Assembly (NCBI GenBank): GCA_002304935.1
Contig: DBPS01000040.1
Coordinates: forward strand, 35,675 to 99,674
DNA from: Candidatus Humimicrobium oleiphilum
GTDB lineage: Bacteria > Actinomycetota > Humimicrobiia > Humimicrobiales > Humimicrobiaceae
Direction: 5' to 3'
Length of the DNA stretch: 64,000 nucleotides
Part shown: positions 7,392-64,000 of the stretch, piece after piece
Numbering within the stretch: position 1 is the first letter of the stretch
Layout of the letters: every line of letters begins with the position of its first letter
The notes under the pieces: model-generated
The model's database searches: none
The model's input: the letters and a program-made list of their open reading frames with translations, nothing else
What the model was told of the DNA's origin: nothing
Position numbers and translations under genes: made by a program

Positions 7392-7406
7392 ACAAAAGAG
7401 AAAATC

Positions 7407-8582: not shown

Positions 8583-8623
8583 ATAGTCTTATTTAACTTT
8601 AAATTAACTTTTTACCATTAATT

Positions 8624-9145: not shown

Positions 9146-9148
9146 AAC

Positions 9149-19858: not shown

Positions 19859-21610
19859 ATGTTAAAAGAAATATATGTAAAAAATTTTGCAATCATTGAT
19901 GATGCAAACATCAGATTTACCGGTGGATTTAATATTCTGTCTGGTGAGACAGGTGCAGGAAAAACGCTTATAATTGAAGCAATAAACCTGCTTATAGGCG
20001 AGAGGGCTAATACTGAACTCATAAGAGACCGTCAGGAAAATCTGCTGGTACAGGGTTTCTTTGATTTTAAGGATAATTCAAATGTCATCGATTTTCTCCT
20101 GAAGGAAGGACTTATTAAAAATGTTGATGAAGCCAGTGACCTTGAAATAACGAGGGAGTTAAACAAAAACGGAAGGAACAGAGTATTTATTAATGGCAAT
20201 TTCAGCCAGGTTGGTATTCTTAAAAACCTCAGCAGTCTTTTCATAGATATACATGGCCAGCATGAACATCAGTATCTCCTTGACCAGAAAAACCACTTAA
20301 AAATCATTGATGAAATTGGTGGACCGGAAATATCTGAATTAAAAAAATCGTATAATATCGCCTACAGAAATTATATTGATTCAAAGAAATCGCTTGATGA
20401 CATATTACAGAAACAAAAACAAAAAGACCAGTTTCTTTACGAATTAAGATTAAAGCTCAAAGAACTTGAAAATTTAAAATTAAAACCTGGCGAATATGAA
20501 GAACTTGAAAATGAAAAAAATATTTTAAAGAATTATGAAAAGATATACCAGTATTCATCCGAATGCATTTCAATATTGAACGGAAATGAAAATAATGATT
20601 ATTCACTGGTTTTTAACAATTCAAAACTTTTTAAAATATTATCTGATTTTGAAAAGATTGATAAAAATATTTCAAAATTTTTACCTGATATTGAAGGATA
20701 CAGCATAATAATTGAAGAATTAAACAACTATTTGAATTCTTTCATACAGAATCTGGAATTTAATCCCAGAAAATTAGAGGAAATACAGGAAAGAATATTC
20801 TTAATAAATGAGATAAAAAGAAAATACAATATGGAGATACCTGAGCTTATTGAGCATGAGGAAGAATTAAGAGAACAGGTAGCAAATATTGAAGAGATAG
20901 ATGACATAATAAATGAAAAAACGAAAGATTTTGAATCCAGGAAAGATATTTTATTAAATGAATCAATAAAATTAGATAATCTGCGTAAAAAAATCTCACT
21001 GGGTTTTGAAAAACAGATTATTAAAGAAATGCTTGATCTGAATTTTAAATCTGTAAGATTTAAGGCAGAGATTTCAAATATCGGAGGGGAGGATGCAGAT
21101 TATATAAATCAAAAAGTAAGATTCACCCCTGATGGAATTAATAAATGCGAATTCTTGATTTCACTTAATCTGGGTGAAGAATTAAAAAGCCTTACAAAAA
21201 TCGCTTCAGGAGGAGAAATATCCAGAATAATGCTTGCTCTTAAAAGCATTATTGGAAAAGCTGATAATATCCAGACAATGATATTTGATGAAATTGATTC
21301 AGGTATAGGAGGCCAGACCGCTCTGGTAGTTGGTGAAAAACTTTACAAGATATCAGTTTTAAAGCAGGTTATCTGCATAACTCATCTGCCACAGATTGCA
21401 AGTTTTGCTGATAATCATTTATTTATAGAGAAACATATTGATAAAAATAAAACAAAAATCAAAATCAACACACTTTATGGGGAAGAAAGAGTTCTGGAAA
21501 TATCAAGAATGATGAGCGGTACAAAACAAAGCGATCTGTCTGTCATGCATGCAAACGAACTTATAAATCAAAGCAAACTGATAAAAGAAGAGGTAAGGGG
21601 GGCATTTTAA
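19859..21610 (+). CDS. recN: DNA repair protein RecN
   Basis: 583 aa SMC-like protein. N-terminal Walker A GETGAGKT. Long coiled coil. C-terminal signature and Walker B motifs. Confidence 0.85.
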
Positions 21611-21612
21611 AT

Positions 21613-23223
21613 TTGAAAACTAAATTTATTTTTATAACCGGCGGTGTTCTTTCTTCTCTGGGTAAAGGCATATGTGCAGCTTCACTTGGAAGACTTTTAA
21701 AATCAAGAGGATTAAGTGTGACAATTCAGAAATTCGACCCTTATCTTAATATAGATCCGGGTACCATGAATCCTTTCCAGCACGGAGAAGTTTTTGTAAC
21801 TGATGACGGCGGGGAGACAGATCTTGATCTTGGTCATTATGAAAGATTTATAGATGAGAGTTTGTCAAAGTATAATAATTTTACTTCAGGAAAAATATAC
21901 GGTTCTGTTATTGAAAAAGAAAGAAGAGGGGATTATCTTGGAAACACCGTTCAGGTAATCCCTCATGTAACTGACGAAATAAAAGACAGCATAAAGAAAA
22001 CACTTATAACCAAAACAACTGATATAGTTATAACTGAAATAGGGGGAACTGTTGGAGATATTGAAAGCCTGCCTTTCCTTGAGGCAATAAGACAGTTTAA
22101 AAAAGATATCGGAAAGGAAAATGTTCTTTATATCCATGTAACTTATGTCCCGTATTTAAAAACAAGTGATGAGCTTAAAACCAAACCCACACAGCACAGC
22201 GTAAAAGAGTTGCGCAGCATAGGGATTCAGCCGGATATTATTATCTGCAGAAGCGAAATAAAAATAAATGATTCAATAAAAGCAAAAATAAGCCTTTTTT
22301 GCGATATAGAAAAAGAAGCAATAATCAATGCTGTGGATGCAAAGCATCTCTATGAAGTCCCTCTTAGCCTTAAAGATGAAAAATTCGATGAAATAGTAGT
22401 ATCCAAGCTAGGGCTTAAATGCGGGAAAGCCAGACTGTCTTCGTGGATAAAAATAGTCAATACAATAAATAGTCTTCAGGAAAATGTAACAATAGGAATA
22501 GTGGGGAAATATACCAATCTTAAAGATGCATATCTCAGCATAATTGAATCACTAAATCATGGCGGATATTACTTCAGATCCAATGTAGAAATCAGATGGA
22601 TAAATTCCGAGATACTGGAAGAAAATGCAGGCATGAATGAAGTATTTAAAGATATTAACGGTATACTCGTTCCGGGAGGGTTCGGAATAAGAGGGATTAA
22701 CGGAAAAGTCAGTGCAATAAAATATGCGAGAGAAAATAAAATACCTTTCTTCGGGATTTGTCTCGGAATGCAATGCGCAGTAATAGAATTTTGCAGAAAC
22801 GTACTTGATCTTAAGGATTCAAATAGCTCGGAGTTTGATCCTGATACAAAAAACCCTGTAATCGACATAATACCTGAACAGAAAAATATAGGAAATCTGG
22901 GTGGGACAATGAGGCTTGGAAAATATCCATGCCGGTTAATAAAAAACACCAAATCTTTCAGCGCCTACGGCACAGAACTGATCTCTGAAAGACACAGGCA
23001 CAGGTATGAATTAAACAATAGCTATCTTAAGCAGTTAAAAAACAGGGGAATGATAGTTTCCGGCATATATGAAGAAAAAAATCTTGCAGAAATAATTGAA
23101 ATAAAAGAACATCCCTGGTTTATAGGGGTACAATTTCATCCTGAATTCAAATCAAGGCCTGACAAACCGCACCCGTTGTTTAAAAGTTTTATTGGGGCAG
23201 CCATAAAAAACAGATCTTTATAA
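21613..23223 (+). CDS. pyrG: CTP synthase
   Basis: 536 aa. [20 protein letters not shown]-terminus. Glutamine amidotransferase active site GICLGMQ. Confidence 0.9.
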
Positions 23224-39079: not shown

Positions 39080-39158
<79 letters not shown>

Positions 39159-50873: not shown

Positions 50874-52214
50874 TTATAATTGTGATCTTTCTGTTCTGTT
50901 CAGAGTAACTTTCTTATATTCTTTTGATGCCAGTGAAACAAGCTTGTTAAAAATCCGGTAATTGCATCTTGACTGTATTTTTATAGTATTATTATCATAC
51001 TGTTTGTCTAAAATCATGCAATTTTCATACATGTGCGACTCAAAACTGGCTTCTCCATAAGGTATTTCTACAGTGAATGCAATGTCATTGACAGATATTA
51101 TATGTGTAATAGCGCTTCGAAGTTCTTCAAATCCGGTATGATTTTTTGCAGATATAAAAGCTGAATTCCTGTATTTTATTTTTGCATCATTTATCAATAA
51201 TTTATTGATTGCAATATCTGTTTTATTAAACACTATATAAATCTCTTTATCTTTCACCTGTAATTCATCAAGGACTTTCTTCACGCTTATGATTTGTCTT
51301 TCGTAGTTTGGATTACTTATATCTACAACTATCAGCAATAGGTCTGCTTTTATCACTTCTTCAAGGGTAGATCTGAAAGCAGCTATAAGCTGATGGGGCA
51401 GCTTTTCAATAAAGCCGACTGTATCAGAAATTGAGACCTCTATAAATTCAGATAACTTCAATTTCCTTGTTGTTGAATCAAGCGTGGAAAAAAGCATATC
51501 TTTTTCAAGCACTTCAGAATCAGTAAGAGCGTTTAGCAGGGTTGATTTACCGCTATTCGTATAACCTACAAGAGCAATTTTAAAAATACCTGATTTTTCC
51601 CTTAATTTTCTCTGCGTCGATCTTTGTACAGAGACTTCCTTTATTCTTTTTTCAAGAAGTCTTATCTTTTCTCTTATTTTTCTTCTGTCTGCTTCAAGTT
51701 TTGTTTCTCCCGGTCCTCTGGTTCCGATTCCTCCTCCAAGTCTTGACAACATCACTCCCTTCCCTCTCAGTCTTGGCAGAAGATAGTTAAGCTGAGCAAG
51801 TTCTACCTGTAATTTACCTTCCTTGCTCATGGCTCTTTGTGCAAATATATCCAGTATAAGTGCGGTCCTGTCTATGACTTTTACTTTAAGCTTATCCTGA
51901 AGGTTACCCTGCTGTGTTGGATTTAGCTCATCGTCAAATATTACCAAATCGATGTCTTCTGAAGTGACTATTTCTTCTAATTCTTCCAGTTTTCCTGTGC
52001 TTATATAATATCTTGAATTAATCTTATCCTGTAAATGTGTTACCACTTCAGCAACATATGCACCTGCACTGATAGCAAGATTCTTTAATTCTTCAATATG
52101 ATCTTTTGCATAAGAATCATCTAAAAAATTACTTTCAGGCAAGCTTGAGTATTTTATTTTTAAAAAAACAAGCAAAGATCTTTCTTTTCTAATTTCCGTA
52201 GACTCAAAAGACAT
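50874..52214 (-). CDS. hflX: GTPase HflX
   Basis: [19 protein letters not shown]1 motif plus the HflX N-terminal domain. 446 aa. Confidence 0.85.
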
Positions 52215-53370
52215 TTCTCATCCTATCGATTGCTTCTTCAAGCCTTTCATCCGAAATCGTCAGGGAAATCCTGAAAAATCCTTCCCCGCACAAGCCATAT
52301 GCGCTTCCCGGTGTCACTACTACAGATGCCTTGTCAAGAAGCAGCTTGGCAAAAGAAGATGAAGTAAAACCTTCCGGTACTTTTGTCCAGATATAGATAG
52401 TATTGCCTGATTTAAAATAAGACAGGCCTATTTTATCAAGAAGATTCCAGACCTTAAGCCTTCTCCTGCTGTAAGTCTTATTATTTTCTGCTATCAGCTC
52501 ATCATAATTGTCCAGTGCTTTTGCGGCAGCAAGCTGTATTGCATTAAAAACTCCGCTGTCTACATTGGATTTATATTTGCCCAGGCTGCTGATTGCTGAA
52601 GGATTTCCAACAGCAATGCTTATCCTCCATCCTGTCATATTAAAAGATTTAGAAAGAGAGTAAAACTCTATGCCTGTCTCTTTTGAATTCCGGGCATTAA
52701 GAAAACTGACTGGCTTGTTGTCTTCTTCAGAATAAATATCACCATAAGCATTGTCATGGCAGACAAGTATATTATTTTCCAAGGCAAATTCTGCAAGTTT
52801 TTCAAAAAAATCAATACCGCACCCGGCACTTGTTGGATTATTTGGATAATTGGCATGTATTATCTTTGCCTTTTTTGCAGTATCTGAATCTATTTCATCA
52901 AAATCAATCAGATAATTGTTATCCTCTCTCAGAGGTATACTCACAGTGCTTCCGCCTGCAAACATCGTCCCTGTTTTATAAACCGGATAAGAAGGATCAG
53001 GAGCAAGCACTATGTCTCCAGGATTGATGAAAGTATAAGCAATATTGGCAATTCCTTCTTTTGAACCCCATAAAGAAATTACTTCACTTTCCGGATCGAT
53101 TTCAATATTAAATCTTCTTTTATAAAAATTTGCTGCAGCTACCTTCAATGCTTTAAGGCCATAGCTGGAAGGATATCTGTGATTTTCCGGATTATCAGCC
53201 TGTCTCTTTAACTCTTCTACCACGATATCAGGAGTCTTTACATCAGGATCACCTATTCCAAGACTTATGACATCAAAGCCTTTTTCTTTTTTCTTTTTAA
53301 TTATTTCGTCTATTTCCGCAAAAAGATAAGGCGGAATAGATTTCAGTCTTTCAGATTCCTTAAAAATCAT
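52204..53370 (-). CDS. dapL: LL-diaminopimelate aminotransferase (DapL-type class I aminotransferase)
   Basis: [11 protein letters not shown] and [14 protein letters not shown]-terminal signatures. PLP-binding Lys region. Lies directly downstream of dapF. Confidence 0.55.
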
Positions 53371-53384
53371 TAATTATTTTCCTT

Positions 53385-54323
53385 TCATGCAATATTGTCA
53401 AAAAAATAACTGCCGTCAAAAATGTAGTCGACTTTACCCTTGAGAAAAATACTGTCTGATTGTTTGCCTGACCATTTTATAAACAATCTTCCACCTTCAA
53501 GATTCACAACTGTTTCTCCGGGTTTTACCTTTTCAAGTACAACTGCAGCTGCCACAGATGCACAGGCACCTGTCCCACAGGCAAGAGTTTCTCCGCATCC
53601 CCTTTCCCAGACGCGCATGGATATCTCGCTGTCTGATAAAACTTTTATGAATTCCACATTGGTTTTTTTGGGAAAAATCAAAAAGTTTTCTATTTCCGGT
53701 CCGATTTTACATAAATCCATGTCTTTAAGGTTTTCGTTTTCAGAAATAAATATTACACAGTGAGGATTGCCCATGGAAAGACAGTTTAATTCATATAATT
53801 TCCCTGATATATTATATTTTTTTCTTAAAAACAAATCTTCCCTTGTTTTAAAATCCCCGTAAAAATCATTATTATTTTCTTCAGTTAAAAGCATGTCTTG
53901 CGCAGCTTCAGGTTTTACCGGAATTTTTCCATATTCAAATATAGGAGAATTCATATCTGCCTCTATCATTCCGACTTTGTTGCTTTCCAGCAACTGAAGT
54001 TTTATTTTTTTAATTCCTGCCCTTGTTTCTATTAATATTTCATTCTTTTTGAGTATATTTTTTTCAAAAGCAAACCTTGCCATGCATCTGATCCCATTTC
54101 CGCACATTTCAGCTATCGTACCGTCACTGTTATAATAATCCATAAAAAGATCTGCAGATTTTGATTTTCGGACAATTATTACACCGTCAGCTCCGATACC
54201 AAAATGTCTGTCGCATAATTTTCTTATCTGACTTTCCTGAAAAGAATATTCTTTTTTTACAGAATCGATAAGAATAAAATCATTTCCCTGTCCTGTTAGC
54301 TTTGAAAATTCAACCTCATTCAT
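53385..54323 (-). CDS. dapF: diaminopimelate epimerase
   Basis: GQGNDFILID and GNPHCVIF catalytic Cys motifs. 312 aa, with a low-complexity insertion. Confidence 0.85.
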   Translation of the reverse strand: MNEVEFSKLTGQGNDFILIDSVKKEYSFQESQIRKLCDRHFGIGADGVIIVRKSKSADLFMDYYNSDGTIAEMCGNGIRCMARFAFEKNILKKNEILIETRAGIKKIKLQLLESNKVGMIEADMNSPIFEYGKIPVKPEAAQDMLLTEENNNDFYGDFKTREDLFLRKKYNISGKLYELNCLSMGNPHCVIFISENENLKDMDLCKIGPEIENFLIFPKKTNVEFIKVLSDSEISMRVWERGCGETLACGTGACASVAAAVVLEKVKPGETVVNLEGGRLFIKWSGKQSDSIFLKGKVDYIFDGSYFFDNIA

Positions 54324-55326
54324 GATCCACCTTCAAATTTATTATATTTAAAATATCTCTCATTATTTCTTTTATATCGGAATTAAATCCTGAATCGATC
54401 CAGTTTATCCGACTATCAGCTTTAAACCATGTTAATTGCTTTTTTGCAAGATGTCTTGTATTTTTTTTAATCTCTTCAATAGATTCATCCAGAGTTATTT
54501 CTCCGTCAAGATATCTGACCAGTTCTTTATAACCTATTGCCTGAGTAATGCTATTACATTTTGAATAACCTTTTTCATAAAGTGCCCTCACTTCATCCAG
54601 GAGGCCTTTCTCAATCATTTCGTTTACTCTTTTATCGATATTACCATACAAATATTTTCTCTCGGTATTCAAACCTATCATAACACAATCATAAATTGAT
54701 TTTCTCTTATTCCAGTTTATTAAATAATCAGAGAATTTTCTATTTGTGCCGTAGAATACCTCCAACGCTCTTACAATTCTTCTCTCATCGTTTTTACTTA
54801 TCTTTAAAGCATATTCCCTATCAATTTTTATTAATTCATCATAATAATAATCAAGACCTTTTATTTTTATTTTTTCTTTTATTTCTTTTTTTAATTCATA
54901 TCCAGGATCAGGGGCATACATCAGGTCATCAATTATTGCTCTTATATGAAGTCCGGAACCTCCTGCTAACAAAGGTATCTTACCCCTATTAAAAAAATCT
55001 TCTTTTATTATTTTTCGTGCAATATCCCTGAATTCCACAGCAGTCAGCCTGTAATCAGGCTCGCAGATATTTATCATAAATTGTTTTACTGAAAATTTTT
55101 CAAGATCCTGTTTATCGGTCCCTATATCCATATACCTGAATGCCTGCATTGAATCTGCTGATATAATATCTGTATTTAAAAGTAAAGCCAGATTTAAAGC
55201 TGTTTTTGTTTTTCCGCTGCAGGTAGGACCGCAAATTATTATTACCGTTTTATTTTCGGTAAGTTTTTCTTTAAGAATTTTTAGTTCTTCTTTTGAAATT
55301 AATCCATATATCAGAGAATTATCCAA
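54316..55326 (-). CDS. miaA: tRNA dimethylallyltransferase
   Basis: P-loop IIICGPTCSGKT plus the MiaA family core. Confidence 0.85.
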   Translation of the reverse strand: MDNSLIYGLISKEELKILKEKLTENKTVIIICGPTCSGKTKTALNLALLLNTDIISADSMQAFRYMDIGTDKQDLEKFSVKQFMINICEPDYRLTAVEFRDIARKIIKEDFFNRGKIPLLAGGSGLHIRAIIDDLMYAPDPGYELKKEIKEKIKIKGLDYYYDELIKIDREYALKISKNDERRIVRALEVFYGTNRKFSDYLINWNKRKSIYDCVMIGLNTERKYLYGNIDKRVNEMIEKGLLDEVRALYEKGYSKCNSITQAIGYKELVRYLDGEITLDESIEEIKKNTRHLAKKQLTWFKADSRINWIDSGFNSDIKEIMRDILNIINLKVDHE

Positions 55327-55348
55327 TCATAAATTCCTTTAAGATATA

Positions 55349-56659
55349 TTATATTTTTATACCTTTTAGATAAAATGATTTTGCATCAGTAATTTTTAAA
55401 TTTATAAACTTTCCTATAATATCATTTTCATTATATTCAAAATTAACAAGAGTGCTGTCTTCAAGTCTTCCTTCAAATGTTCCTTTGGGACCTTTACCTT
55501 CTACTAAAACCTCATACCTATTCCCTATTTTACACTGATTCCTTTCAAAGGAAATCTTATTCTGGACATCGACTAGTTCTTTAAAAAAGTATTTTTTCAT
55601 TTTTAAAGACATTCTGTCATCAAATTCTGCTGCTTTTGTTCCTTCTCTTTTTGAATATATAAATGTAAAAGCTCTGTCAAAACGTATTCTTTGTACCATA
55701 TCAAGGGTATCGTAGAAGTCTTTTTCTTCTTCACCAGGAAAACCGACAATAATATCAGTAGTAATCGCACAATTATCAATATTTTTCCTAATCTGCTCTG
55801 TAAGTTTTAAAAAGCTATCTCTTGTATAGTGTCTGTTCATCAATTTTAAAATTCTGTCTGAGCCTGACTGAAGCGGTAAATGAATATGAGGCATGATATT
55901 GTCTCTGGATGCAATTATATCTATCAGATCAGATGAAAGATCCTTTGGATGACTTGTCATAAATCTTATCCTCTTTAACCCCCTTATTTCAGAAATATCT
56001 GCGAGTATCTCTGAAAATGTTACAATATTTTCAAGATCCTTGCCGTAAGAATTCACATTCTGGCCTACGAGAGTTACTTCTGCTACACCTGTTTGGACTA
56101 ATCTTTTAATGTTTTCCAAAATAAGTTCTGGCTTTATTGATATTTCTTTTCCTCTTACAAAAGGCACTATGCAGTATGAACAAAAATTATTACACCCTAT
56201 TGAGATAGGAATATAAGATTTAAAGTCATATGTTTTTTTGAATTTTTTAAGATCATAATCAAAGCCTTCTTCAGAAATGCTGCATATCTTTTTATTGTCT
56301 TTTAATCTTTTTTCAATTATTAAGGGCAGACTGGAAATATTGTGAGTGCCAAAAACTATATCTACAAATGGAAAATCATCGAGTATCTGCTCTTTCAGGT
56401 TCTGGGCAGTGCACCCGCCAACGCATATAAGCATGCTTGAATTTTTTATTTTATATTCTTTATATCTGCCAAGGTGGCCATAAAGCTTGTTCTTTGCTTT
56501 TTCTCTTACAGCACATGTATTAATAATTATAAGGTCCGATATTCCGGGGTTATTTTCTCTTTTATAACCCATTTGTTTAAGAATGAATTCAATTCTTTCA
56601 GAGTCAAATTCATTCATCTGGCAGCCGAATGTTTCAATATAATATTTTTTCATAACCAA
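55349..56659 (-). CDS. miaB: tRNA-i6A37 methylthiotransferase (MiaB family: radical SAM plus TRAM)
   Basis: N-terminal MTTase domain (YIETFGCQMN), radical SAM CNNFCSYC and a TRAM domain. Adjacent to miaA. Confidence 0.75.
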   Translation of the reverse strand: MVMKKYYIETFGCQMNEFDSERIEFILKQMGYKRENNPGISDLIIINTCAVREKAKNKLYGHLGRYKEYKIKNSSMLICVGGCTAQNLKEQILDDFPFVDIVFGTHNISSLPLIIEKRLKDNKKICSISEEGFDYDLKKFKKTYDFKSYIPISIGCNNFCSYCIVPFVRGKEISIKPELILENIKRLVQTGVAEVTLVGQNVNSYGKDLENIVTFSEILADISEIRGLKRIRFMTSHPKDLSSDLIDIIASRDNIMPHIHLPLQSGSDRILKLMNRHYTRDSFLKLTEQIRKNIDNCAITTDIIVGFPGEEEKDFYDTLDMVQRIRFDRAFTFIYSKREGTKAAEFDDRMSLKMKKYFFKELVDVQNKISFERNQCKIGNRYEVLVEGKGPKGTFEGRLEDSTLVNFEYNENDIIGKFINLKITDAKSFYLKGIKI

Positions 56660-56697: not shown

Positions 56698-56967
56698 TTA
56701 TTCCATCGGCTTGGTTTCAACAGTCAGGACAATAGCTGTTTTTATTTCTCCATTAACTTCAATATCCTTAAAAAAAGGAATACATATCACTTCTTTACCT
56801 GTTGGCGCTATATAGCCTCTTGCAATCGCTATACCTTTTATTGTCTGGTTTAAGGCAGCCGCACCAATAGTCTGTAGCTGGACTCTTCCTTCTTCTCTTA
56901 TTATACCTGCTATTGCCCCTGCTATTGAATTAGGCCTTGTATTGGCAGAAACTTTAAGTATTTTCAT
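56698..56967 (-). CDS. spoVS: SpoVS-family protein
   Basis: MKILKVSANTRPNSIAGAIAGIIREEGRVQLQTIGAAALNQTIKGIAIARGYIAP is a close match to SpoVS. 89 aa. Confidence 0.85.
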   Translation of the reverse strand: MKILKVSANTRPNSIAGAIAGIIREEGRVQLQTIGAAALNQTIKGIAIARGYIAPTGKEVICIPFFKDIEVNGEIKTAIVLTVETKPME

Positions 56968-56975
56968 TTTTACAA

Positions 56976-58133
56976 TCAGTTTATTTCTTCGAGTTCTATG
57001 TTAATTTGTATGTTATTATTATTTCTCTTAACTATAAAATTATCGCTAGCTTTGATAAGATGTTTTTGTCCTTCTTTATTTATTCTTTCAACCAATACAT
57101 TCATTATATACTTAATTTCCTCATCTTCAAATCTTGAAGATAATTTCTGATCTTCATATATCTTTAAAATATATTTTTCTTTCTCTTTGTTTTTTTCATT
57201 GTCCTCAATTAATCCATTATTTTTTTTCTGGTTTAAATGTACCAGCTGCTCGAGGTTTATGGGATTTAAAGGTTCAAATTCTTCATAAATAATCCTCTGA
57301 ATATTTCTGTCTGATATGTTCATATTGAAAAAACTGCTGCATATGCTTGAAAGGACATTGTAATTATTTGTCAGACACGGATAATAAACCAGTTTCAGAT
57401 TTTTGCTCATTTTTATATATTTTTCAACTTCTTCAAAATCATTAAATTTTGGCAGAGAATCAAATAATTGTAGTGATTTTGCATTATTTCTCATGCTTGA
57501 TATGATCTGTGAAGGTGCTCCATAAAAAAGATTTACCTGCTGGTTCTGAAGCTTGAATTCTACAAGGTTTTTCGGAATGTTATTTAATCCCCCTATTATG
57601 CTTATATTGCCGTCAAGCTCTACAATCTGCGGAAAAACTGACTGGTCTTTTTTTTCAGGGATACTTGAAAGATCAACTCTTAGAAAAAATGAACTCCCGG
57701 CATTAATATTGGAAAAAGTAAGAAAAATCTCTTCTACATTCAGTTTGATTGAAAATAAAGCCATACCCCTGCCATGAAACCCATAAATATCTTTATGTGC
57801 ATTTTCAAGTTTTGAAGTTACCCTTGCCTCAAAAATGAGATTTTGCAGATTTAAAGGAATACCTTTACCGTCATCAATAAAATGTATTATTCTTTCTGAA
57901 TCTCCGGCTTTTTTTGTGGCTATATAAATATTTGCTGATTCAGCATCTCTGCTGTTCCTTAATAGTTCTACAATAATATCTTCAACACACTTGATATCCT
58001 GAAGAGCCTGCCTTCTTTCAGCTTCGGAAATCCTTAATCTTACATAACCGCTTCCAAGATCCTGTTCAATATTCTCAATATTTTTTAGCCCTAATTCAGA
58101 TAAAAAATTTTTTATATCTGAATTATTTTGCAT
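56976..58133 (-). CDS. GHKL (Bergerat-fold) ATPase of unknown function, with MutL/MORC-type N-box
   Basis: N-box ELLRNSRDAES, G1 box IDDGKGIP, G2 box GFHGRGMALFS. There is no HisKA domain and no TM segment. The ~230-aa C-terminal part has no recognisable domain. Overlaps the rny stop codon by 11 nt. Confidence 0.55.
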   Translation of the reverse strand: MQNNSDIKNFLSELGLKNIENIEQDLGSGYVRLRISEAERRQALQDIKCVEDIIVELLRNSRDAESANIYIATKKAGDSERIIHFIDDGKGIPLNLQNLIFEARVTSKLENAHKDIYGFHGRGMALFSIKLNVEEIFLTFSNINAGSSFFLRVDLSSIPEKKDQSVFPQIVELDGNISIIGGLNNIPKNLVEFKLQNQQVNLFYGAPSQIISSMRNNAKSLQLFDSLPKFNDFEEVEKYIKMSKNLKLVYYPCLTNNYNVLSSICSSFFNMNISDRNIQRIIYEEFEPLNPINLEQLVHLNQKKNNGLIEDNEKNKEKEKYILKIYEDQKLSSRFEDEEIKYIMNVLVERINKEGQKHLIKASDNFIVKRNNNNIQINIELEEIN

Positions 58134-59688
58134 AATCTACAGCACGACTTTCTCTTATAACCGTTACTTTTATCTGACCGGGGTATTCCATTTCGCTTTC
58201 AATCTTTCTCGCGATATCTTTTGCAAGAATTAATGAAAGATCATCATTTATTTCATCAGGTTTAACAATTACCCTGATCTCTCTTCCAGCCTGAATTGCA
58301 TAAGCTTTTTCGATGCCTTTAAAATCTGTGGCTATTTTTTCCAGGCTTTCAAGTCTCTTTATATAGCTTTCAAGCGTTTCTCTTCTTGCTCCGGGTCTTG
58401 CGCCGGAAATAGCATCTGCAACCTGCACTATTATATCAAGAAGGGTTTCTGTTTCAATTTCACCATGATGGGCTTCTATTGAATGGACGATCTCTCCATC
58501 CTCATGAAGCCTCTTTGCCAGTTCAGCTCCAATTAATGCATGTGATCCTTCTATGTCATGCGTAAGAGCTTTACCTATATCATGTAAAAGTCCCGCTCTT
58601 TTTGCTTTCTTTACATTTGTTCCTAATTCAGAAGCAATGATTCCTGCTACAAAAGCAACCTCTTTTGAATGCATTAGTACATTCTGGCCGTAGCTTGTCC
58701 TGTATTTAAGTCGTCCGAGTACTTTTATAAGACCTGGATTTATTTCTGAAATCCCCGTATCAAATATCGCCTGTTCCCCTTCGACTTTTATTTCATTATT
58801 TATAAGTTTGCTAGCTTTTTCATACATTTCTTCAATTCTTGCAGGGTGTATCCTTCCGTCAATTATTAAATTTTCAAGAGTCACTCTGGCGATTTCTCTT
58901 CTGACAGGGTCAAATGATGACAGGATGACAGCTTCAGGAGTATCATCTACTATTATGTTTATACCTGTAAGATTCTCAAAAACCCTTATATTCCTGCCTT
59001 CTCTCCCGATTATTCTTCCTTTCATCTCATCATTGGGAAGGTTTACAACAGATACTGTTGTCTCTGCAACATGTTCCACTGAACATCTTTGTATCGCCTG
59101 TGCTATGATTTTTCTGGCTATTTTATCTGATTCTTCTTTTGTCTGGGCTTCAATCTTTTTTATTTCTTTTACTGACTCGTATTTTGCTTCTTCTTCCATC
59201 TTCTTTAAAAGAATTGCTTTTGCTTCTTCTCTTGTAAGTTCTGCTATTGCTTCGAGTCTCAGTAATTCCTTTTTCAATATTTCTTCAAGTGAATTCTTAG
59301 TTTCATCGATTTCCTTTTCTTTGTTCACTATCGTCTGTTCTCTTTTTTCAAGAAAAGAAATTTTCTTTTCAATAGTTTCTTCTTTTGATAAAATCCTGTT
59401 TTCCAGTTTCTGAAGTTCAAATCTCTGTCTTTTGATATCTTCATCAGATCTTAATTTAATATTTGCAATTTCTTCTTTACCTTCTGCAATTGCTTCCTTT
59501 TTTAAGGTCTGCGATTCTTTTTTGGCATCTTCTACTATTCTTTTTGCATTTTGCTCAGCAGAGTTAACTTTGGCATCAACCAGTATTTTACGGTAATAAA
59601 ATCCACCTATAAAACCTGCAACAAGAATAACGGCTCCTATACCAATAATTTTCATTACTTCTAGCAACATCAGCATCAATCCTTTCAT
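58123..59688 (-). CDS. rny: ribonuclease Y
   Basis: N-terminal TM helix, coiled coil, KH domain and HD domain (LLHDIGKA). 521 aa. Confidence 0.9.
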   Translation of the reverse strand: MKGLMLMLLEVMKIIGIGAVILVAGFIGGFYYRKILVDAKVNSAEQNAKRIVEDAKKESQTLKKEAIAEGKEEIANIKLRSDEDIKRQRFELQKLENRILSKEETIEKKISFLEKREQTIVNKEKEIDETKNSLEEILKKELLRLEAIAELTREEAKAILLKKMEEEAKYESVKEIKKIEAQTKEESDKIARKIIAQAIQRCSVEHVAETTVSVVNLPNDEMKGRIIGREGRNIRVFENLTGINIIVDDTPEAVILSSFDPVRREIARVTLENLIIDGRIHPARIEEMYEKASKLINNEIKVEGEQAIFDTGISEINPGLIKVLGRLKYRTSYGQNVLMHSKEVAFVAGIIASELGTNVKKAKRAGLLHDIGKALTHDIEGSHALIGAELAKRLHEDGEIVHSIEAHHGEIETETLLDIIVQVADAISGARPGARRETLESYIKRLESLEKIATDFKGIEKAYAIQAGREIRVIVKPDEINDDLSLILAKDIARKIESEMEYPGQIKVTVIRESRAVDYAK

Positions 59689-59992
59689 AAAAAAAACCGA
59701 GCATATCTTTGCCCGATTTTATATTGCACAATATTTGTTAAAAATTATATATTAAATTTTAAATATATCTTCCCTATATATTTATCAGTTAAAATTAATA
59801 TTTAAATTTTTCTTTATCATATTTATATAAAAATTAACTCAGCTTCTTCTAAAAAACTTTTAAATATAAACAATTAGATAAAGCCGATAAGTGCAAAATA
59901 AAAAATCAAGCAAATATAATTATAATAAATTTTAAAAATATTTTATATTTTAGCACAGATTTAGTCAAGAATATAAGATTACCAACATCTGC

Positions 59993-60337
59993 TTAAACAT
60001 CTATAGACAATATTCTTATGTCATCAGCAGGAATTATTTTTATATTCCTGCTATTGCATGACTTACAATTCCCCGGTCTTTTTAGGGATATTTCAAATTC
60101 AGCTCCGCAATCAGTACACACAGCTCTTAAAATATCTTTTTTAAATACAAGTCTGCAATCTTTAAATAAAGGATTATCTTTAGTTAAAAATTTGAAATAA
60201 AACTTAAGTGACTCTTTTTCAATACCCCCCATAGGATTTAAAATCAGCCTTATTTTCTTTATTCTTTTTAACTTTCTATCATCAGCTATTTTGCCAAGTA
60301 TCGATAATATGGAATTTGTAATTGAAAATTCGTGCAT
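59993..60337 (-). CDS. hypA: hydrogenase nickel-incorporation protein HypA
   Basis: N-terminus MHEFSITNSIL. Zinc motifs CTDCG...CKSCNS. 114 aa. Confidence 0.8.
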   Translation of the reverse strand: MHEFSITNSILSILGKIADDRKLKRIKKIRLILNPMGGIEKESLKFYFKFLTKDNPLFKDCRLVFKKDILRAVCTDCGAEFEISLKRPGNCKSCNSRNIKIIPADDIRILSIDV

Positions 60338-60348
60338 TATTTTAATTG

Positions 60349-60816
60349 TCAGGCATTAAAAAACTCTGTTATTTTTTTTTCTGTTTTTTCTACTATATCT
60401 TCAAACACCGATTTCATTCCATTAGATATTTCTGATGATAAAGTTTTGATTTCAAAAGGAGAAATACCTATTATTATCATCTCCGGCAAGTCATTTGGGA
60501 TTGAAAGGATTCTTAATGCATCAATAAATTTAAGCTGGTGCAGTGAATAGTTGTTAACGTTTATTTTTTTTTGCAGATCTTCCAGTTTAAGGCTATAAAC
60601 ACAGCCCGGTTCAGAATCTTTTGCTAATATACAGTCGATAACTACCATTTTTTTTATTCCAGGATTCAGATAATAATCAATTTCCATTGAAGAGCTGCCT
60701 AAATCTGCATATATCGTATCTTTTAATTTATTTCTTTTTTCCAGCTCTCTGACTAAATGTATACCTATCCCTTCATCAGTAAATAAGATATTTCCAAGAC
60801 CAATGACAATATTCAT
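60349..60816 (-). CDS. hyaD: hydrogenase maturation endopeptidase (HyaD/HybD family)
   Basis: MNIVIGLGNILFTDEGIGIHLVRELE. 155 aa. Confidence 0.8.
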   Translation of the reverse strand: MNIVIGLGNILFTDEGIGIHLVRELEKRNKLKDTIYADLGSSSMEIDYYLNPGIKKMVVIDCILAKDSEPGCVYSLKLEDLQKKINVNNYSLHQLKFIDALRILSIPNDLPEMIIIGISPFEIKTLSSEISNGMKSVFEDIVEKTEKKITEFFNA

Positions 60817-61476
60817 TTAAGAGGACTTCTTTGCAACATGCTTTTCCCATCCGGTTATGACCGATTTGTAAAAATCCATTATTTTAGGCCCTGTGGAACC
60901 AAGATAAATATGGGCAATTACTGTGATAGCAAATATCCAGCAGAGTATAAAATGTATGAATTTGATATTCTGGAGTCCTCCGAAAATATTATTAAACTGA
61001 GCCCATCTGGCAGTAAAATACATCGCTATGCCTGTAATTCCCTGTATTAGAAGCAGAATAGGCCACAGACTGTATATCATCCTTTGCCCGGGATTATACT
61101 TTCCATAATCTTTTTTAGGTGCACCTGTAAAAATCCCGTACAGATAATATTTGAACAGGTTTGGAAGTTCAAGCAGGTCCCTCCATCTGAAAACCAATTC
61201 CTTTATTTCACCGCTTACTATTGAATAATATATCTTATATATCATTGTCCAGCCTATTATATACATAAAAATAAAGTGGACATACCTTGCAGAATCCATG
61301 CTTGGGAATATTCTGAATACTGTAGGTGAATAAATATAAAAACCGGTCAGTATCAACATAACCATAGAGATTAAATGAAGCCCGTGCATTATCCTTGTGA
61401 CAATTGTGTGCTTGAAAATAAAAATAGCACCATTAATTGTTTTTTCAGGCATTTTACTTGATGAAATAGACATCAT
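60817..61476 (-). CDS. hyaC: Ni/Fe-hydrogenase b-type cytochrome subunit
   Basis: Four TM helices with conserved His. Lies downstream of the large subunit. Confidence 0.7.
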   Translation of the reverse strand: MMSISSSKMPEKTINGAIFIFKHTIVTRIMHGLHLISMVMLILTGFYIYSPTVFRIFPSMDSARYVHFIFMYIIGWTMIYKIYYSIVSGEIKELVFRWRDLLELPNLFKYYLYGIFTGAPKKDYGKYNPGQRMIYSLWPILLLIQGITGIAMYFTARWAQFNNIFGGLQNIKFIHFILCWIFAITVIAHIYLGSTGPKIMDFYKSVITGWEKHVAKKSS

Positions 61477-61490
61477 ATCTCTCCTAAAAA

Positions 61491-63047
61491 TTAAATTTTA
61501 AATCTATATACACTTTCGTTTTCCATATCTATTATGTGTATTGCGCATGCAAGACACGGATCAAAAGACCTGATTACTCTCGCAGGTTCTATCGGATTCT
61601 TGCTATCAGCAACCGGTGTGCCTATAAGAGCCATTTCGAAAGGCCCCGGATTGTTATTATCATCTTTTGGCGAGCCGTTCCATGTTGTAGGAACAACTGC
61701 CTGATAATTTGAAATTCTCTTATTTTCAATTTTAATCCAGTGCCCCAGAGAGCCTCTTGGACCTTCCGTGAGCCCTTTCCCTTTTGAGCTAAGAGGTATA
61801 CTGAAATCATTAGCAACCGGTCCGCCAGGAATAAGTTCATCTAACCAGTATTCCATTCTGTCAATAAGTATTTTTGATTCAAGAGCTCTGGCTGCATGCC
61901 TTCCCATAGTGGAAATAAGATTTTCAGGACTTGCGGACAATTCAGTCAATGCACTTTTTACCAGATTGTTAAGCTCGCTATTTGAATTTGCAGAATATGA
62001 AATCAATGCTCTTGCGAGCGGTCCGACTTCAACGACTTTACCATTATATCTTGGAGATTTTATCCATGAATATGCATCTTTTTTAAATGGAGACGGTATA
62101 GTCTGTTCATCATAAGGGTTTAGCCCTGATTCTGAGGAATACTTTGAATGCTTTACAAATTCAGTAATTTTTTCTGCTTCAAAATCAGAAACCTTTTTAC
62201 CAGTTAAAACTCCCCGGGGGAAGAGCCAGCTTGAATTATCTTCATTTTCAGGAAAGCCGCCATATGACATAAAATCAGAGGTTCCCTTCCCTATTGCAAA
62301 GTAATCAGGATAATTTTTAGCAATTGCAATGACATCAGGTATATAAGTTTTTTCAACAAAATTTTTAATCTCTGATAATCTCGATTTAAAAGCCATGATT
62401 TTATCTACTGTGGGAACGCATGTAACTCCTCCGGGTACCAGCGTCTGGCAGTGCGGCATTTTGCCCCCGAAGATAGCAAGCATCTCATGGCATTTTCTTC
62501 TTATTTCAATTGCCTTTATATAGCTGGCTATGGCATGTATATTAAGCTCATGATCTTTTACATAATCTCCCTCATATCTTGGAAGAAACGGAGAGCCTGC
62601 TGTCCTGCTGCCTGAATCCAAATCTGATTTTATCCATTCTTTTATTTTGATTATTTTTGAATCCGTTCCTTTATAATCCAGCGCTGCTGTTATATCTACA
62701 AAATCAAGTGCAGAAAGAAGATAGAAATGAAGAATATGACTTTGAAGGAAATTTGAACCCAGCATAAGATTTCTTATTATTCTTCCATTTTTTGCAGGTT
62801 TTATCCCGAAAGCGTCATCAAGAGCCATAACAGAACCTGTGCCATGCACCTGCGGACATACTCCGCATATCCTTTGTGCTATCATGGGAGCATCAAGAGG
62901 GCTTCTGTCTCTTAAAATTATTTCTATCCCTCTGAACATTTCACCAGAACTGTATGCTTCTGTAACTTTACCATTTTCTACTTTTATTTCTATTTTTAAA
63001 TGACCTTCGATCCTTGTAAGCGGATCGATTATTATTGTTTCAGTCAT
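61491..63047 (-). CDS. hyaB: [NiFe] hydrogenase large subunit (group 1, uptake type)
   Basis: N-terminal RIEGH and RICGVC motifs. C-terminal DPCLACAIH followed by a 14-aa extension for HyaD processing. Confidence 0.9.
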   Translation of the reverse strand: MTETIIIDPLTRIEGHLKIEIKVENGKVTEAYSSGEMFRGIEIILRDRSPLDAPMIAQRICGVCPQVHGTGSVMALDDAFGIKPAKNGRIIRNLMLGSNFLQSHILHFYLLSALDFVDITAALDYKGTDSKIIKIKEWIKSDLDSGSRTAGSPFLPRYEGDYVKDHELNIHAIASYIKAIEIRRKCHEMLAIFGGKMPHCQTLVPGGVTCVPTVDKIMAFKSRLSEIKNFVEKTYIPDVIAIAKNYPDYFAIGKGTSDFMSYGGFPENEDNSSWLFPRGVLTGKKVSDFEAEKITEFVKHSKYSSESGLNPYDEQTIPSPFKKDAYSWIKSPRYNGKVVEVGPLARALISYSANSNSELNNLVKSALTELSASPENLISTMGRHAARALESKILIDRMEYWLDELIPGGPVANDFSIPLSSKGKGLTEGPRGSLGHWIKIENKRISNYQAVVPTTWNGSPKDDNNNPGPFEMALIGTPVADSKNPIEPARVIRSFDPCLACAIHIIDMENESVYRFKI

Positions 63048-64000
63048 ATTTTTTCCTCCTTGTCAGAAGTATTCTGTATATCCTGATCTGCTTTGTCATT
63101 TTCTTCTTCTATATGAGAAGAATCGGATCTGCTTTGTTTTTTCTTTAATTTTTTTGTGCTTATGGCTCTGGCAACTGCATGCCCTGCAATTGCAGCAGCA
63201 GTAGCACCTCCCAAAGCAATTCCTATCGTATTGGCATTAGCATTTATTTCCGCAAGACCGGGAACCTGTGCTGCCGGAAGTTTTTCATATAATCCCGAAC
63301 CAGATCCGCCAGGAAAAGTCGGCTCAGTACAGCCTATACAGGGTCCTCCGGCCCTGTTACACCAGCTGACAGAACTATTCCACCCTCTTGTAGAAATATC
63401 GCAGTGAGCTACTGGCCCTTTGCAGCCAAGTTCATAAAGACAGCCTTTCTCACCAAATTTTTTGGCAAAAATACCTGCATCGAAATATTGTCTCAACTCA
63501 CAATTGTCATGCACCACTTTGTCGGATCCAAAAAATATTTCAGGCCTGTTCAGGTCATCAAGTTTTGGCAATCCGTATTTTAAAACATGCACTAGTGTTC
63601 CAATTACCCATTCCGGATGTGGAGGACATCCCGGAATATTTATTAAAGGTTTTTCTTTGATAATATCCTTTGCCGGTTTTGCTTTTGTGGGATTTGGAGG
63701 AGCAGCAGGAATGCCTCCCCAGGTTGCACAAGTACCTACTGCCACTACAGCCGATGCAGCTGAAGCTAACTTCTCAATCCACTCAAGGGCAGTTACCGAT
63801 TTACCGTTAACTTCCCCCACATTGCAGAAATTACCTTCAGCTTCAACAGGAATGGAGCCATCAATAACAAGAATGAATTTTCCTTCTTCTTCAGTTATTG
63901 CTTTTTCAAGCATGGAAATTGCAACATCACCGGTTGCACCCATTATCGTAGGATTATATTCAAGAGTAATAAGTTCGATAAGCACTTCTTCGGCACTTGG
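63044..64000 (-). CDS. hyaA: [NiFe] hydrogenase small subunit; the N-terminus lies beyond the window
   Basis: LIELITLEYNPTIMGATGD and FeS-cluster Cys motifs. The frame stays open to position 64000. Has a C-terminal hydrophobic anchor plus a charged tail. Confidence 0.8.
   Translation of the reverse strand, partial: PSAEEVLIELITLEYNPTIMGATGDVAISMLEKAITEEEGKFILVIDGSIPVEAEGNFCNVGEVNGKSVTALEWIEKLASAASAVVAVGTCATWGGIPAAPPNPTKAKPAKDIIKEKPLINIPGCPPHPEWVIGTLVHVLKYGLPKLDDLNRPEIFFGSDKVVHDNCELRQYFDAGIFAKKFGEKGCLYELGCKGPVAHCDISTRGWNSSVSWCNRAGGPCIGCTEPTFPGGSGSGLYEKLPAAQVPGLAEINANANTIGIALGGATAAAIAGHAVARAISTKKLKKKQSRSDSSHIEEENDKADQDIQNTSDKEEKI

Follow-up and report, generated by a model that had tools for sequence, protein, structure and literature searches.

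The locus analysed here raises the question of what is encoded directly after the RNase Y gene where YmdB is missing, and whether the product works with the nuclease. In Gram-positive bacteria, the decay of most mRNA starts with RNase Y. To our knowledge its helpers, the Ric proteins of the Y-complex and YmdB, are confined to Firmicutes and little understood, and it has no known partner that consumes ATP. In Bacillus subtilis, ymdB is followed by spoVS. On its other side ymdB adjoins rny (PMC3542257). In the 64-kb stretch of DNA examined here (hereafter the window), the slot between rny and spoVS is held by the gene for a MutL-like GHKL ATPase (positions 56976-58133, minus strand; 385 aa plus stop, with an ATG start, Pfam matches and homologues). 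Comparison of gene order with that of B. subtilis thus agreed with the sequence-only reading from which this work started, in which the gene had been placed in the ymdB slot. With the B. subtilis YmdB sequence as query, validated at 597 bits to PDB 4B2O, tblastn gave no match either in the window or among 90 related loci. A crude motif scan for ymdB in the window and related loci likewise returned none, and Pfam and NCBIfam gave no Metallophos match in the GHKL protein.

Judged by its sequence, the ORF is a real gene. The same 385-aa protein also exists elsewhere, and full-length homologues are found in the hundreds with E values down to 1e-241, which places the ORF far beyond chance. The Bergerat motifs that had been read in it were all present (N-box ELLRNSRDAES, residues 56-66; G1 IDDGKGIP, residues 86-93; G2 GFHGRGMALFS, residues 118-128), and none of the four ATP-binding motifs is disrupted. 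Residues 46-157 (57663-57998, minus strand) make up the Bergerat (GHKL) ATP-binding core, which holds motif I (E56, N60, D63), motif II (D87xG89xG91), the lid (R104, T106, S107 and K108, then G118, H120, G121, R122 and G123) and motif IV (G146). Conservation was assessed in 40 diverse family members, whose identity to the window protein ranges from 28 to 56%. In motif I (ExxxNxxD), no member departs from E56 or N60 and 39 of the 40 have D63, and motif II (D87-D-G89-K-G91) and the lid segment G118-F-H-G121-R-G123 are invariant or nearly so. The general-base glutamate of the ATP site, E56, is intact in the window protein, and the ATP-binding domain has the α/β sandwich fold. When the two Pfam profiles were compared, as had been suggested from the sequence, HATPase_c_3 (37.7 bits, cut-off 25) scored above HATPase_c (29.9 bits, cut-off 26.4). 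Nothing beyond these two was found in the Pfam scan at E<=1, and no profile assigned the protein to a characterised family, an assignment that the sequence-only reading had named as grounds for refutation. It had also been described as having no HisKA domain, TM segment or recognisable C-terminal domain, and Pfam, hydropathy and C-terminal-half searches support that description. The Pfam scan gave no HisKA/DHp domain or related match, and the maximum Kyte-Doolittle 19-residue mean of only 1.03, versus 2.37 for the RNase Y anchor, indicates a protein without a TM segment. The GHKL ATPase is a soluble protein of a conserved, so far unnamed MutL-like family.

The term "orphan", applied to the ORF earlier, proved wrong. 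A word-indexed search with the window protein gave 2077 matches. At 50% identity, the family to which the ORF belongs is compact and comprises 334 clusters, 160 of which reach E<=1e-30; sequence lengths are about 340-430 aa. At least 552 species genomes carry the family, which is spread over Humimicrobiia (the lineage of the window), Geothermincolia, Anaerosomatales and Coriobacteriia. Carriers in the last class include cultivable, medically relevant human gut and oral groups (Eggerthellaceae, Olsenella, Lancefieldella, Slackia and Collinsella), and cultured hosts include Olsenella uli, Atopobium fossor, Parafannyhessea umbonata, Lancefieldella rimae and Slackia equolifaciens. Family members bear only the database name "ATP-binding protein". 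Look-ups of the clusters added nothing more informative; one cluster is named "predicted Rdx family selenoprotein", which looks like a mis-annotation. Members in bins outside Actinomycetota (Eubacteriales, Bacteroidaceae, Methanomethylophilaceae and Agathobacter rectalis) were treated as lying on mis-binned contigs because of their 56-67% GC and Coriobacteriia-type synteny.

The association with rny is the most constant feature of the family. In the window, rny (58123-59688, minus strand) is the first gene of the pair. Its product scored 721 bits against TIGR03319 (cut-off 454) and matched Pfam RNase_Y_N, KH_1 and HD, and its hydrophobic N-terminus (Kyte-Doolittle 2.37) is the membrane anchor. 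The ORF coordinates confirm that the stop region of rny (…DYAK and stop) and the ATG of the GHKL gene share 11 nt (58123-58133, minus strand), and translational coupling is presumed at this overlap. The identical -11 overlap, with ATGCAA inside the rny tail, was found in the 14 Humimicrobiia-type loci of the genome scan, in all seven loci of an earlier set and in locus L091. Most Coriobacteriales have a spacer of 1-8 nt between the two genes and no overlap. Counting only loci with upstream DNA present, rny lies directly upstream of the family gene in 78 of 78 scan loci. The same arrangement was found in 7/7 loci of the earlier set, and sampling of the most divergent representatives showed it in all six. 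Loss of the linkage in close relatives, which the sequence-only reading had named as grounds for abandoning its proposal, was not seen in any relative examined. The pair is kept where ruvCAB, HlyIII or an LRR protein replaces the downstream genes, and in genomes whose GC content runs from 26 to 69%. In RNase-Y-bearing anaerobic Actinomycetota, the second place in the rny operon is obligatorily occupied by this family, and the GHKL protein is a strong candidate partner of RNase Y, the main RNA-cutting enzyme. A 517-aa sequence (P0263) that resembled an rny-GHKL fusion was rejected as a frameshift artefact in an error-prone contig. Literature searches on RNase Y with GHKL, and on Coriobacteriia with RNase Y, found no papers, in keeping with the earlier statement that a GHKL ATPase tied to RNase Y had not been described.

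The genes further downstream are less tightly associated. The gene spoVS (56698-56967, minus strand; PF04232, E 3.6e-32), which encodes a small protein of the Alba superfamily, starts 8 nt beyond the GHKL stop in the window and lies downstream of the GHKL gene in about 90% of related loci. SpoVS has been related to Alba (PMC11621453, PMC2732212). Next come miaB (55349-56659, minus strand) and miaA (54316-55326, minus strand), which with dapF, an aminotransferase gene and hflX make up the rest of the co-directional block (50874-56659, minus strand), conserved across classes. In Coriobacteriia the block is opened by recA/recX. As a whole (recA/recX-rny-…-miaB-miaA-hflX), the block is an ancient cluster of housekeeping genes, among which neighbours do not all share a function, and this counts against an RNase Y partnership argued from gene order. 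The translation-related genes miaB, miaA and hflX would suit a housekeeping ATPase unrelated to RNA decay or DNA repair, for instance one related to the ribosome or to tRNA modification, that is co-transcribed with rny only for expression level. We regard this as very improbable: the gene is tied less closely to miaB, miaA and spoVS than to rny, and similarity to translation factors was sought with Pfam, NCBIfam and a C-terminal structure search and none was found. A defence-system reading of the locus was rejected, since PADLOC gave no match there.

The full-length architecture is specific to the family and consists of an N-terminal extension, the GHKL core, a PE(K/R)xDQS linker, an α/β element, an HTH-like bundle, a disordered linker and an α-β-β domain. 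The conserved N-terminal extension (residues 1-45, …EEDLGxGFVRLxxxEAERRQAxxDI; 57999-58133, minus strand) has a mean pairwise identity of 0.48 among the 40 diverse members, in all of which G29, E37, R41, Q42 and D46 are invariant. It aligns with the region preceding motif I in MLH1 and MutL, has a pLDDT <50 in the monomer model, and is a candidate dimerisation strap or partner-binding segment. Following the core, residues 158-222 (57468-57662, minus strand) form a linker with an invariant PE(K/R)xDQS..P and a β-β-α-β-α element predicted at residues 169-220, with G182 and N185 invariant and R/K188 conserved at a β→α junction. In the model this element is possibly a minimal S5-like transducer, the second α/β domain (S5 domain-2-like) that in ATPases with GHKL and transducer domains brings a basic residue to the γ-phosphate. 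Structure searches aligned 170-190 residues to structures with GHKL and transducer domains versus 124-131 to GHKL-only fragments, and the isolated C-terminal model gave no transducer match. The helical bundle (residues 223-296; 57246-57467, minus strand) carries the HTH-like motif GLxxS274xR276xxxR280I and gave weak GntR winged-helix matches. Such a motif more often denotes DNA binding, which speaks against action with RNase Y. When 17 C-terminal halves were scanned with Pfam at E<=10, scattered noise was all that appeared, with HTH families absent, and a profile of the C-terminal half found no match among solved structures; the winged-helix and S5 assignments are tentative for these reasons. 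The disordered linker (residues 297-329; 57147-57245, minus strand; pLDDT ~30, mean pairwise identity 0.08) varies from 7 to 69 aa across the family. It leads to a C-terminal helix and β-hairpin (α-β-β) domain (residues 330-385; 56979-57146, minus strand), a candidate constitutive dimerisation element. Net charges of the domains are near zero and none is clearly basic, so nucleic-acid binding is not indicated by composition. The want of a basic domain also weighs against the RNase Y reading. With this C-terminal architecture, which had not been described before, the family adds a lineage to the GHKL ATPases.

The nearest relatives of the family are the MutL/MLH N-terminal domains. The best NCBIfam match of the protein was the MutL N-terminus, phmmer matched MLH1, and the family profile gave E values of 1.9e-9 for Aquifex MutL, 1e-6 for MLH1, 2e-4 or worse for histidine kinases and 0.05 for MORC2. 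MutL ranked above kinases and Hsp90 in sequence and structure searches alike. The earlier placement of the Bergerat fold nearer to MutL than to histidine kinases was therefore upheld by NCBIfam, phmmer, the family profile and the structure search. MutL equivalog models (TIGR00585, NF000949-53) reached 33.6 bits versus a cut-off of 180, with only residues 49-129 aligned. The same rankings bear on a kinase- or chaperone-type GHKL protein, which would phosphorylate RNase Y, SpoVS or another partner in the manner of anti-sigma serine kinases and histidine kinases, or help membrane RNase Y to fold or assemble as Hsp90 does for its clients. Pfam HATPase_c does exceed its cut-off, and weak NCBIfam matches to AdeS, RstB and KdpD were seen. 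However, a HisKA/DHp domain and a conserved acceptor histidine are both missing, the lid motif RVTSKL…G.HGRGMAL resembles that of MutL, anti-sigma kinases are far smaller, and the C-terminal modules of this protein do not resemble the middle and C-terminal domains of Hsp90. Together with the lower rank of kinases and Hsp90, this makes such a role highly unlikely.

Affinity to MutL also raises the matter of mismatch repair. The absence of mutS and mutL from the window, remarked on earlier, was corroborated by a family-profile scan and by ORF lengths, since only one GHKL ORF was found and no stop-to-stop ORF exceeds 592 aa. In the corresponding block of Bacilli and Clostridia, mutS-mutL lie between miaB and miaA. 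Their absence here, the recA/recX start of the Coriobacteriia block, the closeness to MutL/MLH in sequence and structure, and the HTH-like bundle with its weak GntR matches would all suit a DNA-directed ATPase, derived from the MutL N-terminal domain as a remnant or a paralogue and serving mutation avoidance, recombination control or nucleoid organisation, whose position beside rny would reflect only an inherited gene block. In addition, all Coriobacteriia analysed in one study are reported to be without MutS-MutL and without NucS (PMC5290159), which leaves mismatch repair unexplained in the very class where the GHKL family is universal. We nevertheless consider a DNA-directed role unlikely. 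MutL-like sequence is limited to residues 48-151, no DNA_mis_repair transducer, MutL_C endonuclease domain or MutS partner is present, and no domain shows a basic charge bias. After rearrangement the GHKL gene stays with rny, not with recA or miaA, and the overlap or 1-8 nt spacing of the two genes implies that co-expression with RNase Y has been selected. DNA and not RNA is the substrate of all the nearest relatives (MutL, topoisomerases and MORC), an observation unfavourable to an RNase Y partnership.

The linkage to rny in every locus examined is the reason for proposing that the GHKL protein is an ATP-driven dimeric switch working with RNase Y, a reading by analogy that we judge about evenly balanced between right and wrong. 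ATPases with GHKL and transducer domains (MutL, the topoisomerase II ATPase domains, Hsp90 and MORC) are dimers whose N-termini close on ATP and reopen after hydrolysis. By this family behaviour, the GHKL protein would be dimeric, its N-terminal domains shutting on ATP binding and reopening after hydrolysis; a dimeric clamp of this kind agrees with the N-terminus, conserved yet modelled at low confidence, and with the length of the disordered linker. The ATP cycle would modulate membrane-bound RNase Y and could recruit, license or restrain RNA cleavage, as the MutL cycle licenses a partner endonuclease, and SpoVS, the Alba-like product of the adjacent gene, may be involved. In a more specific form, which we think rather doubtful, a MutL-type ATPase was retained or recruited after the loss of MutS-MutL as an ATP-operated licensing subunit of RNase Y, possibly with SpoVS. 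If true, the logic by which MutL controls an endonuclease in mismatch repair would have been turned to gating the nuclease with which RNA decay begins, and RNase Y would have its first regulator driven by a nucleotide. Still bolder is the suggestion that it supplies the mutation-avoidance function of Coriobacteriia, the class without MutS-MutL or NucS. The family bears on how these bacteria avoid mutations, and offers a sharply defined RNase Y partner candidate, present in every RNase-Y operon sampled from several Actinomycetota classes. Point mutants can be directed at the ATP site (E56A, D87N) and at the HTH-like bundle (R276, R280).

Comparison with known systems places the GHKL protein beside several of them and within none. 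With the MutL/MLH/PMS N-terminal ATPase domain it shares the motifs E..LRNS.DAGA, DDG.GI,.TSKL and G..GRG.AL, the alignable region before motif I and, probably and by analogy, the operating principle of ATP-driven N-terminal dimerisation controlling a partner endonuclease. It differs from MutL in having neither the PF01119 (DNA_mis_repair, S5-fold) transducer nor the MutL_C dimerisation/endonuclease domain but an unrelated HTH-like bundle and α-β-β C-terminus, and in being encoded in a window without MutS, beside an RNA endonuclease and not DNA repair genes. Prokaryotic MORC/paraMORC proteins (PMC2292703) are likewise stand-alone GHKL ATPases of Pfam HATPase_c_3 with extra C-terminal modules, possibly including a counterpart of the small S5-like element. 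The MORC S5 signature is GhXhhpXXRhl (Iyer, Abhiman & Aravind 2008, PMC2292703), whereas the family consensus after the core is GPxNIxRxxxEF, with the Arg 6 and not 8 residues after the Gly and another hydrophobic pattern. The GHKL gene also lies outside restriction-modification and defence neighbourhoods, in a housekeeping operon whose context is conserved across classes and in which it is vertically inherited, in contrast to the sporadic, laterally mobile MORC genes. Anti-sigma serine kinases are single domains of about 140 aa with an anti-sigma partner, unlike this 385-aa protein with its unrelated C-terminal modules. To Firmicutes YmdB (TIGR00282) the relationship is positional only, in the slot directly after rny and before spoVS. 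Both proteins are soluble, have unclear roles and are linked to RNase Y by context, but one is a calcineurin-like metallophosphoesterase and the other a GHKL ATPase, related in neither sequence nor fold. YmdB has been proposed to act on transcripts under RNase Y control (PMC6123443), and the GHKL ATPase may be its non-homologous functional counterpart. RicA, RicF and RicT of the Y-complex, which direct RNase Y cleavages in B. subtilis (PMC10470536), form an unrelated Fe-S/flavin complex without an ATPase and are not encoded directly after rny, but they provide a precedent for dedicated, lineage-specific accessory proteins of RNase Y.

The gene between rny, encoding RNase Y, and spoVS is a 385-residue open reading frame with an ATG start on the minus strand (56976..58133), hereafter the GHKL gene. 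The three Bergerat-fold motifs quoted in the sequence-only reading were located in its product at residues 56-66 (ELLRNSRDAES), 86-93 (IDDGKGIP) and 118-128 (GFHGRGMALFS). On the same strand, rny (58123..59688; TIGR03319, 721 bits against a cut-off of 454; RNase_Y_N, KH and HD domains) shares 11 nt with the GHKL gene (58123-58133), exactly the overlap first read. spoVS (56698..56967, minus; PF04232, E 3.6e-32) starts 8 nt past the GHKL stop and is followed by miaB, miaA, dapF, an aminotransferase and hflX, closely packed on that strand, and the profile matches uphold the order rny, GHKL gene, spoVS, miaB. The B. subtilis YmdB query, validated at 597 bits against PDB 4B2O, gave no match in the window or in any of 90 related loci. 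The GHKL gene occupies the ymdB slot of Firmicutes, as first read; ymdB there adjoins rny, with polar effects (PMC3542257). The family profile found no second GHKL frame in the 64-kb window, whose longest open frame is 592 aa; mutS and mutL are therefore missing from it, as had been stated.

Upstream, a terminator-like hairpin with a T-run (59693-59720, minus) has its end precisely at the first ATG of the rny frame; an SD-like AAAGGA comes next, so translation of rny probably begins at M5 or M7. The hairpin may serve as a leader attenuator for rny, or may just terminate the hypA operon that lies upstream; about 250 nt upstream there is a promoter-like TTGACT-17-TAAAAT (59940-59968, minus), and the hairpin region matched no Rfam family. 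A [NiFe] hydrogenase cluster (small and large subunits, cytochrome b, HycI protease and HypA; 59993-63985, minus) lies directly upstream of rny here and in two related loci (L001, L004), and not in more distant relatives. The window also carries, on the plus strand, a 453-aa frame with no Pfam match at E<=1e-5 (12045-13406), a RecN-like SMC_N protein followed by CTP synthase (19859-23223) and its single tRNA gene (39080-39155), together with genes for EPSP synthase, Der GTPase, phosphoglucomutase and D-Ala-D-Ala carboxypeptidase.

The GHKL protein matched two Pfam models above cut-off, HATPase_c_3 (37.7 bits, cut-off 25) and HATPase_c (29.9 bits, cut-off 26.4), and no others. The Pfam scan found no HisKA domain and no match in the C-terminal 230 residues, and no hydrophobic segment was observed (maximum Kyte-Doolittle 19-residue mean 1.03; the RNase Y anchor reaches 2.37), in agreement with the initial description. 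The best NCBIfam matches were MutL N-termini, far below threshold (33.6 bits against a cut-off of 180), and human MLH1 was the sole phmmer match among PDB sequences. A family profile built from 40 diverse members matched Aquifex MutL (1.9e-9), MLH1 (1e-6) and B. subtilis MutL (1e-5), the alignment being limited to residues 48-151; histidine kinases scored 2e-4 or worse and MORC2 0.05. MutL N-terminal domains also ranked first in a Foldseek search with the AlphaFold model (pLDDT 73.6; confident at residues 45-160, 185-295 and 331-385). The proposed Bergerat fold and its preference for MutL over histidine kinases thus stand. A kinase or an Hsp90-like chaperone is highly improbable, given the missing HisKA domain, a MutL-like lid and the ranking of kinases and Hsp90 below MutL in sequence and structure searches alike. 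Among 40 members sharing 28-56% identity with the window protein, E56, N60, D63, D87, G89, G91, T106, G118, G121, R122, G123 and G146 are invariant or nearly so, and an active ATP site is therefore expected. All defining features of the GHKL superfamily that were tested were found, and this identity can be stated with very high confidence.

The remainder of the protein has a family-specific architecture, with its C-terminal regions (185-295 and 331-385) modelled confidently. Conservation of residues 1-45 equals that of the ATPase core (mean pairwise identity 0.48; G29, E37, R41, Q42 and D46 invariant), yet the monomer model shows them as disordered. In MutL-type ATPases the N-terminal strap becomes ordered upon dimerisation, and by analogy residues 1-45 may behave likewise. 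An invariant PE(K/R)xDQS..P linker directly follows the core. Residues 169-220 are predicted to form β-β-α-β-α, with G182 and N185 invariant and R/K188 conserved at the β→α junction; with the topology of an S5 domain-2-like transducer core, the element may be a minimal transducer. A small α-β-β C-terminal domain with a nearly invariant Y358, plausibly a constitutive dimerisation element, comes after a disordered linker of 7-69 residues.

The term "orphan", used in the sequence-only reading, proved wrong, as the protein belongs to a large family. A word-indexed search returned 2077 matches; the best 120 span 95% or more of the query with identities of 52-100%, and any names among these are just "ATP-binding protein" or "hypothetical protein", the sources being Actinomycetota, Candidatus Humimicrobiaceae and Hydromicrobium MAGs. 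When 1.84 billion cluster representatives were searched exhaustively with a profile, the compact family came to 334 clusters at the 50% identity level (E<=1e-3), of which 160 have E<=1e-30; most are of 340-430 aa. Scanning one genome for each GTDB species found relatives in at least 552 species. The best 80 scan loci belong to Humimicrobiia, which is the lineage of the window itself (83% identity to MAG STE_53), to Geothermincola, Solincola and Anaerosomatales, and to numerous Coriobacteriia, among them Lancefieldella rimae ATCC 49626, Parafannyhessea umbonata, Olsenella porci, Slackia equolifaciens DSM 24851, Atopobium, Collinsella and Eggerthellaceae. Homologues from Olsenella uli, O. profusa and Atopobium fossor, found in an L. 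rimae-seeded search, bear the same bare name in RefSeq and UniRef. Four contigs labelled Eubacteriales, Bacteroidaceae, Methanomethylophilaceae and Agathobacter rectalis (L027, L030, L034, L035) have 56-67% GC and a Coriobacteriia-type gene order and are probably mis-binned; there is therefore no solid evidence of the family beyond Actinomycetota. The name "predicted Rdx family selenoprotein" given to the family member P0148 (JGI 3300038380) looks like a mis-annotation, and the 517-aa rny tail-GHKL "fusion" P0263 (ENA ERZ25039596, locus L088) is a frameshift artefact of a noisy contig.

Gene order was compared by tblastn of the window proteins against all fetched loci. rny lies directly upstream of the GHKL gene in 78 of 78 scan loci having upstream DNA (two others, which begin at a contig edge, were left out), in all seven loci fetched by exact protein look-up and in the six most divergent family representatives placeable on contigs. 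spoVS is next downstream in about 90% of loci, then miaB and miaA. In the junction analysis the 11-nt overlap, with ATGCAA inside the …DYAK-stop tail of rny, was present in every Humimicrobiia-type locus and in one further locus (L091); in most Atopobiaceae and other Coriobacteriales the two genes stand 1-8 nt apart, and in Anaerosomatales- and Geothermincolia-type loci about 100-650 nt. One Coriobacteriia-like subclade carries a 172-aa frame between the two genes (5423-5941 in L072; also L046, L065, L074 and L087), which by eye looks GNAT-like. The pair is intact where the downstream genes are replaced by an LRR protein, HlyIII or ruvCAB, and is kept across genomes of 26 to 69% GC and between classes whose RNase Y is just ~50% identical. 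Because it outlasts broken synteny, this GC span and RNase Y divergence, the GHKL gene is bound specifically to rny, its ties to spoVS and miaB being weaker. The looser link to the downstream translation-related genes argues against an unrelated housekeeping ATPase co-transcribed merely for expression, which we consider very unlikely.

Among several rearranged loci where the pair alone persists is that of a Coriobacteriales MAG (L077), in which ruvC-ruvA-ruvB (7053-9344) directly follows the GHKL gene in place of spoVS-miaB. Two contigs of one MAG, Raoultibacter sp. CGS1Y2-bin19 (L029, L076), each carry a rny-GHKL pair, and in both the candidate start is the same unusual TTG, lying 17 nt within rny; strain heterogeneity or duplication could account for the two pairs. 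Two Anaerosomatales-type loci have a PHP-domain gene between spoVS and miaB, and LigB and AMMECR1, fused or adjacent, between miaB and miaA (L059, 7412-8356 and 9703-11118; L090, 3645-4460 and 6162-7490), the latter interval being the mutS-mutL position in Firmicutes.

The GHKL protein is thus a conserved, soluble protein of several domains whose MutL-like ATP site is intact. Co-transcription of the GHKL gene with rny is predicted to be obligatory, with frames often overlapping. The GHKL+transducer clade comprises MutL, type II topoisomerase ATPase domains, Hsp90 and MORC. By the established behaviour of this clade, the GHKL protein would be a homodimer whose N-terminal domains clamp shut on ATP binding and open again after hydrolysis. 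The gene linkage suggests that this cycle would act on or with the membrane-anchored endonuclease RNase Y, possibly through substrate recruitment, licensing of cleavage or restraint; MutL, whose ATPase cycle licenses a partner endonuclease, provides the model. [quoted passage not shown] RNase Y depends on lineage-specific accessory proteins such as the Ric complex (PMC10470536), and the YmdB phosphodiesterase has been suggested to act on RNase-Y-controlled transcripts (PMC6123443). Our functional claims all draw on gene context and homology, and we regard a functional partnership with RNase Y as the likeliest reading, at about even odds.

The nearest relatives of the protein all act on DNA, its helical bundle is HTH-like, the gene block opens with recA/recX in Coriobacteriia, and the mutS-mutL pair found between miaB and miaA in the equivalent block of Bacilli and Clostridia is missing here, as might befit a DNA-directed MutL-derived ATPase. 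Such a role is unlikely, because the MutL likeness is confined to the ATP-binding core, no MutS, MutL_C or PF01119 domain is present, and the gene stays with rny when its neighbourhood changes. All analysed Coriobacteriia are reported to lack both MutS-MutL and NucS (PMC5290159), and in that class this MutL-like ATPase is universally conserved.

NCBIfam and Pfam hold no model for the family as such, and no informative name or paper was found in sequence databases or the literature, in line with the impression that a GHKL ATPase tied to the RNase Y operon was undescribed. Neither assignment to a characterised family (Pfam, NCBIfam) nor loss of the rny linkage (78/78 scan loci) spoke against it. 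The novelty lies in a new GHKL family, in the new architecture of its C-terminal part and in a coupling to RNase Y that spans classes and is without precedent. For work on RNA decay the family supplies a concrete candidate, open to mutation, in human-associated bacteria that can be cultivated, and it bears on the unexplained mismatch-repair gap of Coriobacteriia. Compared with known systems, the protein falls outside histidine kinases, anti-sigma kinases and YmdB by the membership tests applied, and the S5 signature, defence context and sporadic distribution of MORC/paraMORC (PMC2292703) are all unmatched by the family. It differs from MutL in equivalog score, transducer and C-terminal domains and MutS partner; it would work most like a MutL-type ATP switch.
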